64,000 nt of DNA, from assembly GCF_058153355.1 (NCBI RefSeq), contig NZ_CM177019.1; one strand, 5' to 3'. How positions within the stretch are numbered: the stretch's first letter is position 1; each line of letters begins with the position of its first letter. Positions 20,470 through 47,905 of the stretch are shown here, in pieces. The notes under the pieces are model-generated. The model was not told the origin of the DNA, made no database searches, and saw nothing but the letters and a program-made list of their open reading frames with translations. A program made the translations under genes and the position numbers.

Positions 20470-21009
20470 TTACTGATAGGTTAAAGAGAACCAGGCCTGA
20501 GCATTGGCGATGCCGCCAGTAACCCGACGCCCGGTAGCACGATATTTGGCGATGAAATGTAACGACGTAGAGCCTGAGTAAAGTCGTTTCCAGTTTGCTG
20601 GAGGACGATTAATCGGTACAAGGTTTCCTTCATCATCAAACAACGCTACGCCAATATTGGTGGCAATCCCTGGCCCCTCTCCCACGGAAAGCACATCCGG
20701 ATTTTTACCATCCGCGACACCGTGAAACGCCACACCCACACGTTCACTCACCACCGTGCTACATTCCCGTAAATGAATAACAAAAGGCACCGGTGCGCTA
20801 TCTTCCCCAACCGCATGAAACCGGTTACTGCTGATTTGCCTCATATTGACCGTCATTTGTTTATCACCAGCTTCAATCCGGCAAGCTTCTGCAATAATGA
20901 CGCCCTGAAATTGCATATTTCCGCCGGGCAACGTGGTGTTCCATTTATTTCCGGCCAGAGCAAACATTGGCAGCAACGACGCTAATAGAAATAATCTCTT
21001 CCTTTTCAT
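20470..21009 (-). CDS. fimI: Fimbrial protein FimI (start at [12 protein letters not shown] track extends to 21141)
   Basis: 179 aa pilin-like; between fimA and fimC. Confidence 0.9.
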
Positions 21010-21073
21010 CGTTATTTTTATCGCACAAGGGTGGGCATCCCTGCCCATAATGACGTCCCTGAACCTGGGTAGG

Positions 21074-21622
21074 TTATTGATACTGAACCTTGAAAGTCGC
21101 ATCCGCATTAGCAGCACCTGGGGTTGCGGCACCGGTTGCAAAGTAACGCGCCTGGAACGGAATGGTGTTAGTACCGTTATTCAGGGTTGTTTCTGCACTA
21201 AATGTCGCACCGTCCAGCGCCAGTGCAGCACCCGTTCTGTCCAGGATCTGCACACCAACGTTTGTTGCACTACCTGCAGCAGAACTCTGCAGAGCCAGAA
21301 CGTTGGTATGAGTCGCATCAATCGCCGTACCTAAAAAGGCAACAGCGGCTTTTGATGCAACATTGGTATCGCAATCATTCAGCTGAATGTTAAAACCGAC
21401 AGCAGAACTGGTTGCTCCGTCCTGTGCCAGCGATGCGGCACGAACCTGTCCTAACTGAACGGTTTGATCAACAGAGCCTGCATCAACTGCGCAAGCGGCG
21501 TTAACAACTTCCCCTTTAAAGTGAACGGTCCCACCATTAACCGTCGTGGCAGCGGCCAGAGCCGCTGTAGAACTGAGGGACAGAGCCGACAGAACAACGA
21601 TTGCCAGAGTTTTAATTTTCAT
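21074..21622 (-). CDS. fimA: Type 1 fimbrial major subunit FimA (start at [12 protein letters not shown] track extends to 21778)
   Basis: 182 aa; signal peptide [24 protein letters not shown]-terminal ...FKVQYQ. Confidence 0.96.
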
Positions 21623-21739
21623 GCTGCTTTCCTTTAAAAAACTATTTCTAAATCGACATGGGCAGTCGTTCTGTACACTTTGTTTTGAAACGAATTGGAC
21701 TGCCAACACTGCACAGTTCTTCCCCAAAAGATGAAACAT

Positions 21740-22053
21740 TTGGGGCCATTTTGACTCATAGAGGAAAGCATTACGCACGAACTTTCTTAGTTTATTATTT
21801 GGATTTATATTCTATTAATACATTATTTTATAGATTTTTATATTGAACGCGGTGGTTTTTGGAGAGATGAATGAGGAAGTTGCTTCGAGACACAGAAACG
21901 TTAGCTTTACCTATAGCGGAGGTGATGTGAAATTAATTTATAAGAGAAACAATTTACATATCAAACAGTTAGTTGCTTTATGTCGTTTTTTTATATTTTT
22001 ATGCTTGAGAACAAATACAAAACTTTTTTATGATATGGACAGTTTGGCCCCAA
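21740..22053. promoter_or_regulatory. fimS: fimS invertible phase-variation switch (314 bp) bounded by 9-bp inverted repeats TTGGGGCCA (21740-21748) and TGGCCCCAA (22045-22053)
   Basis: Exact 9-bp inverted repeats spaced to give a 314-bp element between fimE and fimA, the published size of the fim switch. Confidence 0.9.
22005..22034 (+). promoter_or_regulatory. Sigma70-like promoter inside fimS (TTGAGA, 17-18 bp spacer, TATGAT) reading toward fimE, away from fimA
   Basis: Hexamers seen on the + strand next to the fimE-proximal inverted repeat; fimA is on the - strand at lower coordinates. Confidence 0.55.
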
Positions 22054-22100
22054 TTGTCTTATATTTCCTTATCTTTTCATATTATTATCAATAAGTTACA

Positions 22101-22697
22101 TCAGGCATCTTCTCTTTTTAATTTTTCGTTTATGAGATTATTTCTTTCCCATAATCCGGCAAAACGTGCAGCATTACTGGCGGTATAACGCACAGTATGG
22201 CGAATATTTCGATGCCCGAGATAATCCTGAATTAAACGGGTATCTGCACCACGCTCCGCCAGTTCATAACCGCAAGCATGCCTTAACATATGAGGATGAG
22301 TCTGCGTCACGGTTCCAGCTTCAATACCGGCATCGCGAATAATGCGATAGGCCTGCTGGCGAGAAAGTCGACTCCCGCGGCGAGAAATAAATATGGCGTC
22401 GGTCTGGTCAGCGCCTTTCCAGTTAATACGTTCCTGGGTCCAGCGCTCCACAGCTTCACGCTCATCAAAACGTAACGGGTGAACGGTAGAAAATCCGTTC
22501 TTCAGTCGGCGAATATTTATTCGACCTTCGTTAAGGTCAAGATCCTGATAATGCAGATCAAGCAGTTCACTAATACGCATCCCATGCCGATATGCCAACA
22601 AAATTAGGCAATAATCTCTGGCTCCCGTTGCCCCGTAACAAACCGCCTGCATCATGTCCTGAACTTCTTTACCGGTAAGATAACGACGTTTACTCAC
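22101..22697 (-). CDS. fimE: Tyrosine recombinase FimE (ON-to-OFF switching)
   Basis: 198 aa phage-integrase-family recombinase (catalytic motifs HxxRH ... Y); position adjacent to fimS. Confidence 0.93.
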   Translation of the reverse strand: MSKRRYLTGKEVQDMMQAVCYGATGARDYCLILLAYRHGMRISELLDLHYQDLDLNEGRINIRRLKNGFSTVHPLRFDEREAVERWTQERINWKGADQTDAIFISRRGSRLSRQQAYRIIRDAGIEAGTVTQTHPHMLRHACGYELAERGADTRLIQDYLGHRNIRHTVRYTASNAARFAGLWERNNLINEKLKREDA

Positions 22698-23174
22698 AAT
22701 AGTAGTACTCCTGACTGAGATATATTTGAATGAATACCTATAGGAAACCTCGATCGGTTAAAATTAGCCCAATAGATAAAAAGATAACCACACAGGAAGT
22801 TATGTGGCTATCAGTCAATTACATTAAATATCATACAAAAATAAAATATCACTGATGTGACAACATCTATTTTCATTGATTTGATTCAATATAACAATAG
22901 ATTGCAGCGGATTAACTTCCAGTTGCTTAAAAAATAAAGAAAAAAGTGCAGAAACAGGAGAACTTGAGTGATGTGTAAATTTATGAATGATTTTGTTTAT
23001 TTATTTTGAAGAACATAAACCATTGTATTTTGTATGGATATGGTTAACTTAATGTTTATTATGATAATTAAGAATCACACTTACAATAACATCAATTAAT
23101 AAATGGTTAATCATTTTTGATATATCGTAAGAATAATGTATTTTTTAACACCATCCCTGGTATCTCATCTATCT

Positions 23175-23777
23175 CTATAAAACAGCGTGATGCTGTCGTC
23201 CTCTGGCTCTATCCCAGATGCCGTAAAAACGCCCTGCATTGCTGGCGGTATACCAGACAGTATGACGAATATTGCGATGCCCAAGATAATCCTGGATAAG
23301 TCGTGTATCTATTCCCATATTCGCCAAAGCAAAACCACACGAATGGCGTAACATATGCGGATGAATCTCCAGTGATAACCCAGCATTACCACCAGAAGTC
23401 GAGATAATATGGTAAAACTGTTGCCGAGAAAGCGGGTTCCCCTTACGTGATAAAAATACCCACTCGCTCTCAGCATGCGGATAAGAAGTACGTATACTCA
23501 ACCAGTTTTTTAAAGCCTGAACTTCTTTGTTCAATAGCGGGTGCGTTGTTGAAAAGCCTTTTTTTAATCGATGGATATAGATACACTTTGCCTTAAGATC
23601 AATATCCGAAATCCTCAATCGACAAATTTCACTCGCCCGGAAACCATGAATAAAACAAAGCAAAGTCAGACAATAATTACGTGCTGCATGAGGCCCGGTA
23701 TTTGCTGCTTTAAGGAGTGACTCGATTTCACTATGGGTCAGGAAGTTCCTTTTTTTGTTATCAGCCTTATTCTTCAT
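23175..23777 (-). CDS. fimB: Tyrosine recombinase FimB
   Basis: 200 aa, paralogous to FimE; upstream of fimE. Confidence 0.93.
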   Translation of the reverse strand: MKNKADNKKRNFLTHSEIESLLKAANTGPHAARNYCLTLLCFIHGFRASEICRLRISDIDLKAKCIYIHRLKKGFSTTHPLLNKEVQALKNWLSIRTSYPHAESEWVFLSRKGNPLSRQQFYHIISTSGGNAGLSLEIHPHMLRHSCGFALANMGIDTRLIQDYLGHRNIRHTVWYTASNAGRFYGIWDRARGRQHHAVL

Positions 23778-25205
23778 CGTTTTCCCTTATAATTACAGAC
23801 GCGCACTAGCTGTGCTGGGTTAGCAATAATCCAACATTTTAATCCTGGTTATGTTTATAAAAGCGAACGTTTGCTTAATAACTAACGTAAGTGGACCAGT
23901 TCTTCTGAGTGAACTAAAATGGAGTAGCGATAGTTACTTATAATAACTTTGCCATACAAACGCCATGCTCTTGCATGCTATGTACCCTTATATATTTATC
24001 AATCTGATACGAATCTAATAATAACCCTCATCATTAATGCAACTAATCTTATCTATATATCATGTGATATGTTCTGTAACAAGTAAAATCAACATAAAAA
24101 ATTCAGCAAAATTTAATATTCGTTCAACTAGCCGTCTCACATATGACATTATTAGTCAACTGCATTTGCCACAAAATGGCTATTTCATGGAACGCAGTAA
24201 TTTCTTAGCGTCTATTATCATGCTAATTCTTAGGTCCCTAGCGATTATTCCTGCCTGGTTCGTCAGCTTACGCCATGAGATTGCTACATTCCTTTTTATC
24301 CTGGAGATATGGGGGAACGCAGGCGACGCTTTTTCATCTACATTCGTTGGTAAATATGGCTTTGGTCACTACGACTTAAACCTTCCTCAATCACAGCTAT
24401 TCGCCGGGCGATACGGCAAACAAACTAAGTGAAACATCATCCTGAAAACACCAATGCGTACTGAACATCAACAAGCCTCTCCTGATCGACTTCAGAAGTG
24501 ACCAGTTACAAGCCACAAACCTGGAAACATATTTCATGATGAGAATTATGCTCAGCCTGATGGCGGGTAAACACTTATTTTCACCACGCTCACTGAGTTA
24601 GCCAGCAAAGCTCCCCTTGTTTAGAGTGCAAATAAATAACATATAAAACAAATAGTTAATAAAATATCTTTGATTTGTGAAGGCCATCGTAAGTGTTCGT
24701 CTGACTTCACATGGCATCTTCTTCATAGAAAAATATAGACATATTTTGTGACACGAATTGCAAATCTGGTTTTGTTATATGGCTTGTGTGATTTTTGATA
24801 TGGTATAACAGGTATAAAGGTGTACCGAAGTAGTCAATGAGACTGAGCATCTCGCAATCTATGACAAACATCACTTCAGTCTGAAAGGAGTATGAAAATG
24901 AGATCAACAAACTTTCTATTTTATGACTCTGGGTAAAATGGATTGAGTAAGTGATATCGCTTACGAATATTCAAATCAATTAAACATCAGAAGAGATTTT
25001 ATACTCAGGTATTTAATCTGGCCCTCTGTTTATTTAAATAATGTGGAAGAGAATTTTCACAGGAGACCTTATACAAAAAATATAAAATACAGCTACCCGT
25101 TACCAAAGACACTATAAGCCTGGCAAAAAATATTACACAACATAAATGCTAATTGTTTATGCGGGCTTTGTATTGCTTTCTGTATCCTACAAATGAGTGA
25201 AATTT
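23778..25205. promoter_or_regulatory. Long (~1.4 kb) AT-rich nanC-fimB intergenic regulatory region
   Basis: No convincing ORF; in E. coli this interval carries the divergent nanC and fimB promoters and distal NanR/NagC/IHF sites (established knowledge, individual sites not mapped here). Confidence 0.6.
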
Positions 25206-25922
25206 ATGAAAAAGGCTAAAATACTTTCTGGCGTATTATTACTGTGCTTTTCGTCACCATTAATTTCTCAAGCTGCGACACTGGACGTACGTGGTGGATA
25301 TCGTAGTGGAAGCCACGCCTATGAGACTCGACTCAAAGTCAGTGAGGGATGGCAAAATGGATGGTGGGCAAGCATGGAAAGTAATACCTGGAATACCATT
25401 CATGATAATAAAAAGGAAAATGCCGCACTCAATGATGTTCAGGTTGAAGTTAATTACGCGATTAAACTTGATGATCAATGGACGGTGCGCCCGGGAATGT
25501 TAACGCATTTTAGCAGCAACGGCACACGCTACGGACCCTACGTAAAATTGTCCTGGGACGCGACAAAAGATCTTAATTTTGGTATTCGCTATCGTTACGA
25601 CTGGAAAGCTTACCGACAACAAGACTTATCCGGTGATATGTCTCGTGATAATGTTCATCGTTGGGATGGATATGTCACTTACCATATTAATAGTGATTTC
25701 ACCTTCGCATGGCAAACGACGCTATACAGCAAACAAAACGATTATCGCTATGCAAACCATAAGAAATGGGCGACGGAAAATGCATTTGTTCTACAATACC
25801 ATATGACGCCTGATATTACGCCATACATAGAATATGACTACCTTGACCGTCAGGGTGTTTATAACGGCAGAGATAATTTATCAGAAAACAGTTATCGCAT
25901 TGGTGTGTCATTTAAACTGTAG
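25206..25922 (+). CDS. nanC: N-acetylneuraminic acid outer membrane channel NanC (start at MKKAKILSG)
   Basis: 238 aa KdgM-family porin, signal peptide; synteny with nanM/nanS. Confidence 0.9.
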   Translation: MKKAKILSGVLLLCFSSPLISQAATLDVRGGYRSGSHAYETRLKVSEGWQNGWWASMESNTWNTIHDNKKENAALNDVQVEVNYAIKLDDQWTVRPGMLTHFSSNGTRYGPYVKLSWDATKDLNFGIRYRYDWKAYRQQDLSGDMSRDNVHRWDGYVTYHINSDFTFAWQTTLYSKQNDYRYANHKKWATENAFVLQYHMTPDITPYIEYDYLDRQGVYNGRDNLSENSYRIGVSFKL

Positions 25923-25941
25923 TAGACAGGAGACAGTCACA

Positions 25942-27048
25942 ATGAATAAAACAATAACGGCGCTTGCTATCATGATGGCTTCATTTGCCGCAAACGCGTC
26001 TGTATTACCGGAAACTCCGGTGCCATTTAAAAGTGGTACCGGAGCAATTGATAACGACACTGTCTACATTGGTTTAGGTAGCGCAGGTACAGCATGGTAC
26101 AAGCTGGATACACAGGCCAAAGATAAAAAATGGACAGCGTTAGCTGCATTCCCTGGTGGACCGAGAGATCAAGCAACCTCTGCATTTATTGATGGCAATC
26201 TGTATGTGTTTGGCGGCATTGGCAAAAACAGCGAGGGCTTGACTCAGGTATTTAATGACGTACACAAATACAACCCCAAAACCAATAGCTGGGTTAAATT
26301 GATGTCGCACGCGCCGATGGGCATGGCGGGCCATGTGACTTTTGTACATGACGGCAAGGCTTATGTTACTGGCGGTGTTAACCAGAATATCTTCAATGGC
26401 TATTTTGAAGATCTCAACGAAGCTGGAAAAGATCCAACCGCTATAGATAAAATCAACGCCCACTATTTTGACAAAAAAGCAGAAGATTATTTCTTCAATA
26501 AGTTTCTGTTGTCTTTTGATCCCTCAACACAGCAATGGAGTTACGCTGGCGAATCTCCCTGGTACGGGACGGCTGGTGCAGCGGTTGTGAATAAAGGCGA
26601 TAAAACCTGGCTTATTAATGGTGAAGCCAAACCAGGACTACGAACGGATGCCGTATTTGAACTTGATTTCACCGGTAATAATTTAAAATGGAATAAACTT
26701 GCTCCCGTCTCATCACCAGATGGCGTCGCTGGCGGTTTTGCGGGGATAAGCAATGACTCACTTATATTTGCCGGGGGGGCCGGATTCAAGGGGGCGCGGG
26801 AAAATTATCAGAACGGTAAGAACTATGCGCATGAAGGCCTGAAAAAATCATATAGCGCTGATATTCATCTTTGGCATAACGGGAAATGGGATAAATCGGG
26901 CGAATTATCGCAAGGTCGGGCCTACGGAGTATCATTGCCCTGGAATAATAGTTTATTAATTATTGGCGGTGAAACTGCAGGCGGCAAAGCGGTGACGGAT
27001 TCAGTTTTGATCTCTGTGAAGGATAATAAAGTCACAGTACAAAACTAA
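25942..27048 (+). CDS. nanM: N-acetylneuraminate mutarotase NanM (start at MNKTITALA)
   Basis: 368 aa, signal peptide, Kelch-repeat beta-propeller (repeated GG...Y/W motifs). Confidence 0.9.
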   Translation: MNKTITALAIMMASFAANASVLPETPVPFKSGTGAIDNDTVYIGLGSAGTAWYKLDTQAKDKKWTALAAFPGGPRDQATSAFIDGNLYVFGGIGKNSEGLTQVFNDVHKYNPKTNSWVKLMSHAPMGMAGHVTFVHDGKAYVTGGVNQNIFNGYFEDLNEAGKDPTAIDKINAHYFDKKAEDYFFNKFLLSFDPSTQQWSYAGESPWYGTAGAAVVNKGDKTWLINGEAKPGLRTDAVFELDFTGNNLKWNKLAPVSSPDGVAGGFAGISNDSLIFAGGAGFKGARENYQNGKNYAHEGLKKSYSADIHLWHNGKWDKSGELSQGRAYGVSLPWNNSLLIIGGETAGGKAVTDSVLISVKDNKVTVQN

Positions 27049-40852: not shown

Positions 40853-40937
40853 TGGTGCCGAAGGCCGGACTCGAACCGGCACGTATTTCTACGGTTGATT
40901 TTGAATCAACTGCGTCTACCGATTTCGCCACTTCGGC
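40853..40937 (-). tRNA. leuX: tRNA-Leu (anticodon CAA), leuX
   Basis: 85-nt sequence on the minus strand matches recalled leuX (GCCGAAGTGGCGAAATCGGTAGACGCAGTTGATTCAAAATCAACCGTAGAAATACGTGCCGGTTCGAGTCCGGCCTTCGGCACCA); its 3' end faces the island. Confidence 0.95.

Positions 40938-46390: not shown

Positions 46391-47905
<1,515 letters not shown>

Follow-up and report, generated by a model that had tools for sequence, protein, structure and literature searches.

What occupies the long interval between the divergent genes fimB and nanC of Escherichia coli, in which no credible gene is apparent? In the window, that is, the entire 64-kb stretch of DNA analyzed here, the left flank of this interval is fimB (23175-23777, minus strand), which encodes the FimB recombinase of 200 aa and is assigned from the ORF list and the RefSeq annotation of homologous loci, and the right flank is nanC (25206-25922, plus strand), which encodes a KdgM-family sialic-acid porin of 238 aa and is assigned from the ORF list, RefSeq annotation and PF06178. 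The start codon of fimB ends at 23777 and the ATG of nanC is at 25206, leaving a spacer of 1428 bp (23778-25205); an in-frame GTG of nanC is found at 25197. When ORFs of at least 135 aa are counted, this is the largest ORF-free gap of the window (1419 bp, the runner-up being 966 bp), and the original prediction of an unusually long gap without a credible gene is borne out with exact coordinates. The spacer is also A+T-rich, with a G+C content of 36.1% compared to 47.5% for the entire window.

The same divergent genes flank the K-12 nanC (yjhA)-fimB region, which has been studied in detail (El-Labany 2003; Sohanpal 2004, 2007; Condemine 2005; McVicker 2011), and the nanC-fimB spacer (1456/1458 bp) appears in a published list of long E. 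coli spacers that are targeted by multiple factors (Shimada 2014, PMC3946193). For this spacer, there are reports of H-NS binding, of two peaks of RNA-polymerase binding and of a 'promoter island'. Taken together, the observations described below indicate that 23778-25205 is, with high probability, the canonical E. coli nanC-fimB intergenic control region, which is gene-free and contains two divergent promoters along with protein-binding sites that tune both.

Spread and conservation of the nanC-fimB spacer

The K-12 spacer is similar in length to that of the window (1455 and 1428 bp, respectively), is likewise A+T-rich and reported to be bound by H-NS, and aligns with it end to end at 91.7-93.8% identity. 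A counterpart of the spacer was found in 5086 of the 5426 complete E. coli genomes. For comparative analysis, we used 14 Escherichia sequences, including the divergent Escherichia E69 and a metagenome-derived contig (L005); the diversity (pi) was computed on 13 of the 14, with the partial L005 contig left out. The pi values are in the range of 0.01 to 0.06 at the promoter and operator islands and 0.12 to 0.41 in the intervening spacers. The comparison of the window with E69 yields the same picture: the third codon positions of fimB and nanC, which serve as a neutral yardstick, differ by 11-13%, the operator islands by about 3-17% (about 7% for the island that extends from the candidate NagC operator O_NC1 to the NanR operator, O_NR, and 17% for the segment with the second NagC candidate, O_NC2), and the spacers between the operators by 40-80%. 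The operators are conserved islands amid hypervariable, fast-changing DNA.

Outside the genus, searches of the fimB upstream regions of Klebsiella, Raoultella, Citrobacter, Enterobacter and others with nhmmer and sensitive blastn detected no homologue of the spacer, the sole match being a weak one in Citrobacter that covers about 70 nt adjoining the fimB ATG. With the homologues of the spacer confined to Escherichia, neither deep phylogenetic footprinting nor covariation analysis is feasible. The comparison across strains that the original prediction had proposed, with an unconserved region or a lack of operator motifs counting against it, found both the spacer and the operator islands to be kept in E. 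coli and in E69, and the motifs to be present.

The fimB promoter, the SlyA operators and an overlapping open reading frame

The published SlyA operators are 5'-TTAGCATGATAA and 5'-CTAGGGACCTAA, the first of which, OSA1, spans positions -168 to -179 (McVicker 2011, PMC3173223). Sequences identical to both are present on the minus strand of the window (OSA1, 24215-24226; OSA2, 24230-24241), between positions -168 and -194 relative to the fimB start, where they overlap H-NS sites; these operators are nearly invariant, E69 included. From the published position of OSA1, the fimB transcription start is back-calculated to approximately 24047, which coincides with a good pair of promoter elements read from the sequence, namely, a -10 element TATATA at 24054-24059 and a -35 element TTGTTA at 24077-24082, with a 17-bp spacer between them. 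This predicted core promoter (24054-24082, minus strand) varies less than any other part of the spacer (pi of 0.010), and the 5' untranslated leader of about 270 nt that would extend from it to fimB (23778-24047, minus strand) also shows very low diversity (pi of 0.005 to 0.07). Upstream of the SlyA operators, the alignments reveal an 11-bp stretch, AATGCGTACTG (24453-24463), that is present in the window and in some other strains but missing in K-12 and offsets the operators upstream of it from the fimB promoter by roughly one turn of the DNA helix; OSA1 and O_NC2 are separated by 303/304 or 314/315 bp in E. coli and by 331 bp in E69.

The fimB promoter and the SlyA/H-NS sites are overlapped, in the antisense direction, by an ORF of 131 aa (24037-24432, plus strand). 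Could this ORF, or its 81-aa C-terminal part, be a real small protein gene? The window, LR-58-1 and MB50 keep the frame open; a sigma-70-like motif of the same direction, TCAACA-17-TTTAAT, lies just upstream (24089-24117) and has been given for the nanC-fimB spacer (Shimada 2014, PMC3946193); and PGAP annotates a 'hypothetical protein' that equals the last 81 codons of the ORF (WP_183163581.1/WP_032193988.1), in MB50 and WL297 only. The frame is, however, broken by a frameshift and a stop codon in K-12, a frameshift in the L005 contig and several stop codons, beginning with codon 2, in E69. Furthermore, each of the four differences that separate the window from LR-58-1 alters an amino acid, no Pfam family matches the product at E <= 1, neither of the ATG codons is preceded by a Shine-Dalgarno sequence, and the underlying DNA consists of the fimB promoter, the SlyA/H-NS sites and an indel-rich hypervariable stretch. 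Judging by the decay of the ORF in other strains, the existence of a protein-coding gene in the spacer appears to be largely refuted, and we consider it hardly credible, in line with the original prediction that the ORF is probably spurious. The 81-aa protein, which is annotated in some strains only, belongs to no family and is encoded in an unconserved frame, is best regarded as an over-annotation.

A distal module of the NanR operator and candidate NagC and IHF sites

The original prediction also placed NanR, NagC and IHF sites far upstream of fimB. A scan for GGTATA repeats identified a single NanR operator, GGTATAACAGGTATAAAGGTGTA (24802-24824, plus strand), which has the form (GGTATA)2-GGTGTA, with two perfect repeats and a degenerate third one; it is the sole match in the 64-kb window, compared to 0.01 matches expected by chance. 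Repeats 1 and 2 do not vary among the 14 sequences; repeat 3 is variable, being GGTGTA in the window and GGTGCA in K-12. In the literature, the NanR operator is defined by GGTATA repeats with 2-3 nt between the repeats, and genomic SELEX locates NanR on the nanC/fimB spacer.

The NagC and NanR operators have been published to lie between about -470 and -760 of the fimB start (McVicker 2011, PMC3173223); the candidate operators in K-12 are at -482, -696 and -755. At the corresponding distances, the window contains two candidate NagC operators, both in a putative register, O_NC2 (24529-24551) and O_NC1 (24743-24765), and, midway between them, an IHF-like site, AAACAAATAGTTA/TATTAACTATTTG (24646-24661). 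The NagC and IHF sites were placed by distance, A/T-rich arms and conservation rather than by published footprints. The center of O_NC2 is at -482 in K-12 and at -493 in the window relative to the fimB start, and in E69, this operator is a conserved island with divergent sequence on either side; O_NC1 is located within a near-invariant island (24731-24820). The IHF-like site includes one-mismatch matches to the IHF motif WATCAANNNNTTR on both strands (24646-24658, plus; 24649-24661, minus). Such matches are not more common in the window than expected by chance (94 observed vs 76 expected); what argues for the site is its position together with the conserved AAACA...TTAA core within a hypervariable block.

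The geometry of the module is fixed: the distances of 214 bp between O_NC2 and O_NC1 and 59 bp between O_NC1 and O_NR are the same in all 14 sequences, and E69 preserves this spacing via compensating indels. Sohanpal and colleagues reportedly found in 2007 that the NagC operators are about 212 bp apart. We checked the spacing at the population level in 60 genomes sampled evenly along a ranking of 5074, 59 of which matched the full module. Across the 294 bp of the module, these genomes carry 10-12.6% substitutions, yet the net length change is zero in 57 of the 59 and -1 bp in the remaining two. Thus, the length of the operator module seems to be held essentially constant across thousands of genomes, a signature that would be expected of a protein-DNA loop.

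NagC-dependent loops, such as that in nagE-nagB, are said, in Plumbridge's work, to require two sites that are occupied cooperatively and a DNA-bending protein that acts between these sites. The module in the window resembles these systems in the strictly kept distance between the operators, as a loop would require. It would differ from them in that the nagE-nagB-type loops repress an overlapping promoter, whereas the candidate NagC sites described here would activate a promoter some 480-700 bp away, and in that the bend would be supplied by IHF.

The predicted nanC promoter and leader

A literature search found no experimentally determined nanC start site. An extended -10 element, TGGTATAAC (24801-24809), located inside the NanR operator, points to a putative nanC promoter at 24801-24816 (plus strand), with transcription predicted to start at about 24816. 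A putative CRP-like motif, TGTGA-N6-TTGCA (24747-24762), overlaps O_NC1, and its center is 61.5 bp upstream of this putative start. The predicted nanC leader (24816-25205, plus strand) would be approximately 390 nt long, compared to approximately 424 nt in K-12, because 34 bp at 24871/24872, downstream of the NanR operator, are missing from the window allele. The missing segment falls between direct repeats, CACTTCAGT, and is absent from 4 of the 14 sequences. The segment 24877-25205 of the leader is conserved, with pi of 0.01 to 0.06, save for a single 30-bp window at 0.11 (25083-25112).

The conserved part of the leader contains a Shine-Dalgarno-like AAGGAG (24885-24890) followed by an upstream ORF of 14 codons, MKMRSTNFLFYDSG plus the stop codon (24892-24936, plus strand), with a second ATG at 24898. 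Other frames in the leader, at 24837, 24951, 25041, 25043, 25146 and 25153, were rejected as unconserved or lacking a ribosome-binding site. The upstream ORF could be translated, as 12-14 codons, and couple leader translation to the expression of nanCMS, possibly by blocking Rho loading or ribosome access; such coupling would supplement rather than replace control by the operators. In favor of this possibility, the strong AAGGAG is located 7 nt ahead of the second ATG, the start, stop and frame are preserved in all 14 Escherichia sequences including E69, the surrounding 30 bp are among the most conserved in the spacer (pi of 0.02), and the ORF falls within the leader if nanC transcription indeed starts at about 24816. 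This placement, however, depends on the predicted start, and the variation is non-synonymous at four of the five variable codons, which means that purifying selection does not act on the peptide sequence. Moreover, an AGGAG followed by an ATG would occur by chance somewhere in 1.4 kb, on either strand, with a probability roughly estimated at 0.2, and the conservation could instead reflect protein-binding sites in the DNA; OmpR and CpxR reportedly regulate nanC, as described by Condemine in 2005. In other taxa, the regions upstream of nanC homologues are short and unrelated, and contain neither an upstream ORF nor a long leader (locus L042 proved to be E. coli). On balance, coupling through a translated upstream ORF seems unlikely. 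The more specific proposal that combines a nanCMS promoter inside the NanR operator with a leader of about 390 nt (424 nt in K-12), in which the 12-14-codon ORF and its strong ribosome-binding site would form a translation-dependent attenuator, for example, via Rho access, is more speculative still.

Small or structured RNAs

Long leaders also raise the possibility that a small RNA or a structured cis-acting RNA, such as a riboswitch, is encoded in the spacer. The original prediction had suggested small RNAs or distal operators as more plausible content of the spacer than the 131-aa ORF. The fimB leader of 270 nt and the predicted nanC leader of about 390 nt are compatible with the presence of such an RNA, and both are more conserved than the synonymous sites of the flanking genes. 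Nevertheless, Rfam yielded no match in the region 20500-26500 at E <= 1, and a search of the whole window at the gathering score yielded none in the spacer. The folding energies do not differ from those of shuffled sequences (z-scores of -0.10 and +0.44 for the nanC and fimB leaders, respectively), and terminator-like sites are lacking on the plus (nanC) strand, with one, a chance number, on the minus strand. Promoter-like sites are no more common than in shuffled sequence, but the promoter/terminator scan overlooked the fimB promoter and the extended -10 element in the NanR operator, and so is uninformative. The sRNAs RseX and MicA have been reported to target fimB mRNA, and regulation by these trans-acting RNAs adequately explains the conservation of the fimB leader. 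A small or structured RNA encoded in the spacer thus appears very improbable: of the two kinds of content that had been suggested, the operators are supported by conserved motifs and the small RNAs are not.

A rare central haplotype

The window is 99.9% identical to MB50 over fimA-fimE-fimB and diverges from it over about 24440-25110. The 401-bp central block has matches at 96.5-96.7% identity in 6 of the 5426 genomes, compared to 4639 genomes with matches at 80-90%. The 65 bp around the NanR operator are absent from all complete E. coli genomes, and an exact-match scan of metagenome contigs with a 42-mer of this haplotype yielded 0 matches. Compared to K-12, the window carries 10-18% substitutions in 24573-24950 and has lost four of the six GATC sites. 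One of these adjoins the NanR operator and is present in all 13 other sequences, including E69, with GATA in its place in the window (24797-24800).

The rare haplotype might be a functional regulatory variant that alters the response of fimB or nanC to sialic acid, GlcNAc or Dam methylation. In addition to the rarity of the central block, the loss of the GATC sites and the divergence from MB50 next to nearly identical fim genes, this possibility is compatible with the 34-bp deletion, which would shorten the nanC leader, and with a recent review in which the effect of Dam methylation on fimB is ascribed to the nanC-fimB region. Conversely, the operator cores and their spacing are unaltered, most of the substitutions map to spacers that are variable in every lineage, and the GATC adjoining O_NC1 is missing in half of the strains and is accordingly dispensable; recombination and drift in A+T-rich DNA that is free of constraint may be all that lies behind the changes. 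A functional role of the haplotype is conceivable but doubtful. Given the many substitutions in the central block and the missing NanR-adjacent GATC, the quantitative behavior of this region could differ from that in K-12.

A model of control and comparison with known systems

The preferred reading of the locus, a gene-free control region, allows us to outline how fimB and nanC may be controlled together. The outline joins the features read from the sequence (the identity of the SlyA and NanR operators, the operator positions, the conservation of the islands, the fixed distances of 214 and 59 bp and the decay of the ORF) to protein binding, by NanR, NagC, IHF, SlyA and H-NS, and expression effects that are taken from the literature on K-12; the nanC promoter with its start position and the exact register of both NagC sites are predictions. 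Two divergent promoters, about 770 bp apart, would be tuned by protein-binding sites. The fimB promoter would fire at about 24047 and yield the 270-nt leader; H-NS would silence this promoter, and SlyA bound at 24215-24241 would lift the silencing. The distal module would consist of the NagC operator O_NC2, the IHF bend site, the NagC operator O_NC1 and the NanR operator, and binding of NagC and NanR to it would increase fimB transcription. Sialic acid, via NanR, and GlcNAc-6-phosphate, via NagC, would abolish this activation, resulting in less OFF-to-ON switching of type 1 fimbriae. The NanR and NagC sites would also sit on the nanC promoter, such that nanC is repressed. Because the sites are shared by the fimB and nanC sides, a single signal would both induce the sialic-acid porin operon and reduce fimbrial switching. 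Both sialic acid and GlcNAc are regarded as inflammation signals. The original prediction that the interval integrates sialic acid and GlcNAc signals agrees with the homology to the K-12 spacer, the presence of the SlyA and NanR operators, and the NagC and IHF candidates.

The K-12 region, at about 92-94% identity, shares with the window the identical SlyA operators, the first two NanR repeats and the 214-bp and 59-bp spacing. It differs in lacking the extra 11 bp between the fimB promoter and O_NC2, in retaining the 34 bp downstream of the NanR operator, and in the central substitutions, the third NanR repeat, the GATC sites and the broken 131-aa frame described above. A broader parallel is provided by csgD-csgB and other long divergent spacers (Shimada 2014, PMC3946193), which similarly exceed 700 bp, are bound by H-NS, separate divergent adhesion-related operons and combine two peaks of RNA-polymerase binding with numerous transcription-factor sites; the genes, factors and sequences involved are unrelated to those of nanC-fimB, and the resemblance is architectural only.

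The nanC-fimB control region is already known and is ordinary apart from the rare central variant: the link from sialic acid and GlcNAc to fimB was worked out in K-12 in studies published from 2003 to 2011, so the recurrence of this region in a further E. coli genome brings no new biology. The present analysis adds modest detail at the population level, namely, the conserved operator islands, the near-constant length of the module and the rare haplotype. If the nanC leader indeed functioned as an attenuator, the control of nanCMS would be altered in the rare allele by the 34-bp deletion and by the hypervariability of the initial 60 nt of the leader. More generally, this haplotype, which lacks the NanR-adjacent Dam site and 34 bp of the leader, could be a natural test of which features of the spacer matter.

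Extent and neighbourhood of the nanC-fimB spacer

The spacer between the divergent fimB (23175-23777, minus strand) and nanC (25206-25922, plus strand, followed by nanM in the same orientation) spans 23778-25205, exactly the interval of the original prediction, and is 1428 bp long. With a minimum ORF length of 135 aa, it holds the largest ORF-free gap of the 64-kb window, at 1419 bp compared to 966 bp for the runner-up (7420-8385; another such gap, 60303-61246, has 944 bp), and its G+C content (36.1%) is below that of the window as a whole (47.5%). A megablast search found the region in 5086 of the 5426 complete E. coli genomes, with nanC adjoining every time, and in the matching K-12-type locus the RefSeq annotation places zero genes in the 1455-bp spacer between fimB and nanC. 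The existence of an unusually long gene-free interval is confirmed.

By its flanking genes, its homology from end to end, and its SlyA and NanR operators, the spacer belongs to the E. coli nanC-fimB control region, which is already known. This region, with a length of 1456/1458 bp, has been listed among the long, H-NS-bound, multi-factor E. coli spacers and contains two RNA polymerase binding peaks (Shimada et al. 2014); another study reports a 'promoter island' within it. The spacer sequence is Escherichia-specific: ORF-poor stretches of approximately 0.3-1.7 kb also occur upstream of fimB in other genera, but these are unrelated in sequence and have different neighbours.

Several other elements were identified in the window. 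On the far side of fimB, fimE occupies 22101-22697 (minus strand), and the fimA coding sequence, also on the minus strand, ends at 21074 (listed ORF 21074-21778). The 314-bp invertible element fimS (21740-22053) is delimited by the 9-bp inverted repeats TTGGGGCCA (at 21740) and TGGCCCCAA (at 22045), and perfect IHF consensus sites are located inside fimS (21959-21971) and just outside it (22086-22098). The leuX gene for tRNA-Leu(CAA), which is reportedly limiting for FimB translation, lies at 40853-40937 (minus strand), about 15 kb past nanC; in the window, fimB contains five TTG codons, fimE two and nanC one. At 46952-47146 (minus strand), Rfam gives a full-length match to a family of Yersinia antisense sRNAs, Ysr276, scoring 181.9 bits (gathering score, 100).

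The fimB promoter and the 131-aa ORF

Both published SlyA operators, 5'-TTAGCATGATAA (-179 to -168 relative to the fimB start) and 5'-CTAGGGACCTAA (-194 to -183) (McVicker et al. 2011), are matched exactly, as reverse complements, at 24215-24226 and 24230-24241. Counting back from these positions puts the fimB transcription start at approximately 24047, with a 270-nt leader. The minus strand near this point carries TTGTTA and TATATA separated by 17 nt, the putative -10 element being at 24054-24059, which provides an independent check on the predicted start. Variation within the spacer is lowest in the leader and the core promoter (pi 0.005-0.07), and the conservation of the leader is sufficiently explained by the small RNAs RseX and MicA, which have been reported to act in trans on the fimB mRNA; folding of the leader shows no excess stability over shuffled sequence (z = +0.44).

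The 131-aa ORF at 24037-24432 lies on the strand opposite to fimB; it begins 10 nt within the fimB transcript and passes over the SlyA/H-NS sites as well as the fimB promoter. The frame is uninterrupted in the window, LR-58-1 and MB50 but is broken by a frameshift with a stop in K-12, by a frameshift in the metagenome-derived contig CAUHML010000277.1, and from codon 2 on in the divergent genome E69. The window and LR-58-1 show four differences in this ORF, each of them non-synonymous, there is no Pfam match to it, and only in MB50 and WL297 are its last 81 codons annotated by PGAP, as a 'hypothetical protein'. We regard this frame as a chance ORF, in line with the earlier suspicion that it was spurious. 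The small RNAs that had been proposed as possible content of the spacer find no support: Rfam gives zero matches over the spacer even at E <= 1, the plus strand contains no terminator-like sites, and the predicted nanC leader folds like shuffled sequence (z = -0.10). The spacer is neither a gene nor a recognisable RNA element.

The distal operator module

The other proposal, distal operators, proved to be the correct half of that pair. The three-repeat NanR pattern, as defined previously (Vimr 2013; Horne 2021), has a single match in the 64-kb window, with 0.01 expected by chance: GGTATAACAGGTATAAAGGTGTA at 24802-24824. By genomic SELEX, the nanC-fimB spacer is the prime target of NanR. The candidate NagC operators O_NC2 and O_NC1 are conserved, A/T-armed 23-mers at 24529-24551 and 24743-24765, respectively, and IHF-like motifs with one mismatch are found at the midpoint between them (24646-24661); the count of such motifs in the consensus scan is not significant by itself. 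The assignment of the NagC and IHF candidates is based on position and conservation. The two candidate operators are 214 bp apart; the NagC operators are reportedly separated by 212 bp, with IHF midway. In K-12 coordinates, the centres of O_NC2, O_NC1 and the NanR operator are at -482, -696 and -755, respectively.

To compare these sites across Escherichia, we aligned the window with 11 complete E. coli genomes from across the identity range, the metagenome-derived E. coli contig and E69, a separate species-level cluster in a species-representative collection with one genome per GTDB species; pi was computed for 13 of these 14 spacers, all except the partial contig. Pi is 0.056 at O_NC2 (24521-24550), 0.015-0.046 from O_NC1 to the NanR operator (24731-24820), and 0.01-0.06 in the nanC-proximal 330 bp except for one 30-bp window (0.11); in the blocks between the operators it reaches 0.08-0.22 (24254-24520), 0.19-0.26 (24611-24700) and 0.18-0.41 (24821-24876). 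As a neutral yardstick, we used third codon positions of fimB and nanC, which differ between the window and E69 by 11-13% and between the window and K-12 by 3-6%. The operator islands are approximately at or below the neutral rate, with a window-E69 difference of about 7% from O_NC1 to the NanR operator and 17% in the O_NC2 window. The inter-lineage difference in the intervening blocks is several-fold above that of third codon positions, an excess that may reflect drift, recombination of old alleles or diversifying selection.

The 214-bp distance between O_NC2 and O_NC1 and the 59-bp distance between O_NC1 and the NanR operator are kept in all 14 sequences, in E69 via compensating single-base indels, and the remaining intervals all vary (303-331 bp; 90 or 124 bp; 312-318 bp). 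In a wider sample of 60 genomes taken evenly down a ranking of 5074, 59 matched the full 294-bp module; its net length change is zero in 57 of these and -1 bp in two, with substitutions at 10-12.6%. Such constant spacing is the pattern expected of a nucleoprotein complex with fixed geometry, which could comprise a NagC-IHF-NagC loop with NanR alongside.

The predicted nanC promoter and leader

The first NanR repeat appears to form an extended -10 element, TGGTATAAC, at 24801-24809, which predicts a nanC start at approximately 24816. The distance from this start to the centre of an upstream CRP-like site within O_NC1, TGTGA-N6-TTGCA, is exactly 61.5 bp, and this geometry suggests a class I CRP-dependent promoter occluded by both NanR and NagC. 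If the start holds, the nanC leader would be about 390 nt long. It would include AAGGAG (24885-24890) followed by ATGAAAATG and a 14-codon frame, MKMRSTNFLFYDSG and stop (24885-24936, plus strand). The start, stop and frame of this upstream ORF are kept in 14 of 14 Escherichia sequences, and few stretches of the spacer are better conserved than the 30 bp around it, which could indicate a functional upstream ORF; however, most of its variable codons change the encoded amino acid, the nanC start is itself a prediction, and the conservation may come from DNA-binding sites, so that we consider this a weak lead and improbable. Outside Escherichia (five retrieved loci, L037-L041), nanC-nanM are found within sialic-acid catabolic clusters, with neighbours including nanE, a ROK kinase, an SSF or MFS transporter, yhcH/DUF386 and a sialidase. 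The nanC upstream regions there are short (61-344 bp) and unrelated, which makes a deeper comparison of the upstream ORF impossible and indicates that the long leader and spacer stem from the junction of nanC and fimB in Escherichia.

The allele of the window

The fimB gene is intact in the window and often inactivated in otherwise close strains: a frameshift disrupts it in MB50 and 2017-02-2CC, IS1 truncates it in NT1W22, and KMi006 has an IS1 insertion and has lost the fim genes, with the breakpoint at spacer position ~263 (window ~24040), at the fimB start. The 3.3-kb contig CAUHML010000277.1, which contains fimE and fimB along with most of the spacer, is labelled 'uncultured Bacteroides sp.'; its FimB is 99.5-100% identical to that of the window, and it is evidently of E. 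coli origin and was wrongly assigned to a Bacteroides genome bin.

Over fimA-fimE-fimB, the window and MB50 share 99.9% identity, and in nanC they are near-identical, but they diverge over ~24440-25110. Over the central 401 bp, identity to the window reaches 96.5-96.7% in only six of the 5426 genomes and is 80-90% in 4639; none of the complete E. coli genomes searched contains the 65-bp stretch surrounding the NanR operator, and a 42-mer from this stretch has zero matches in metagenome contigs. Compared to K-12, the window has an extra 11 bp at 24453-24463, so that all three operator centres are 11 bp, and the module thus one helical turn, farther from the fimB start and promoter. It also lacks 34 bp at 24871/24872, between direct repeats CACTTCAGT, a deletion common to the window and three of the 13 other aligned sequences, and its third NanR repeat is GGTGTA. 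Four of the six GATC sites of the K-12 spacer are missing; directly beside the NanR operator (24797-24800), the window has GATA where all 13 others, including E69, have GATC. A recent review attributes an effect of Dam methylation on fimB to the nanC-fimB region. For this control region, neither the rare haplotype nor the fixed spacing of operators amid hypervariable DNA is surprising, although both details are useful.
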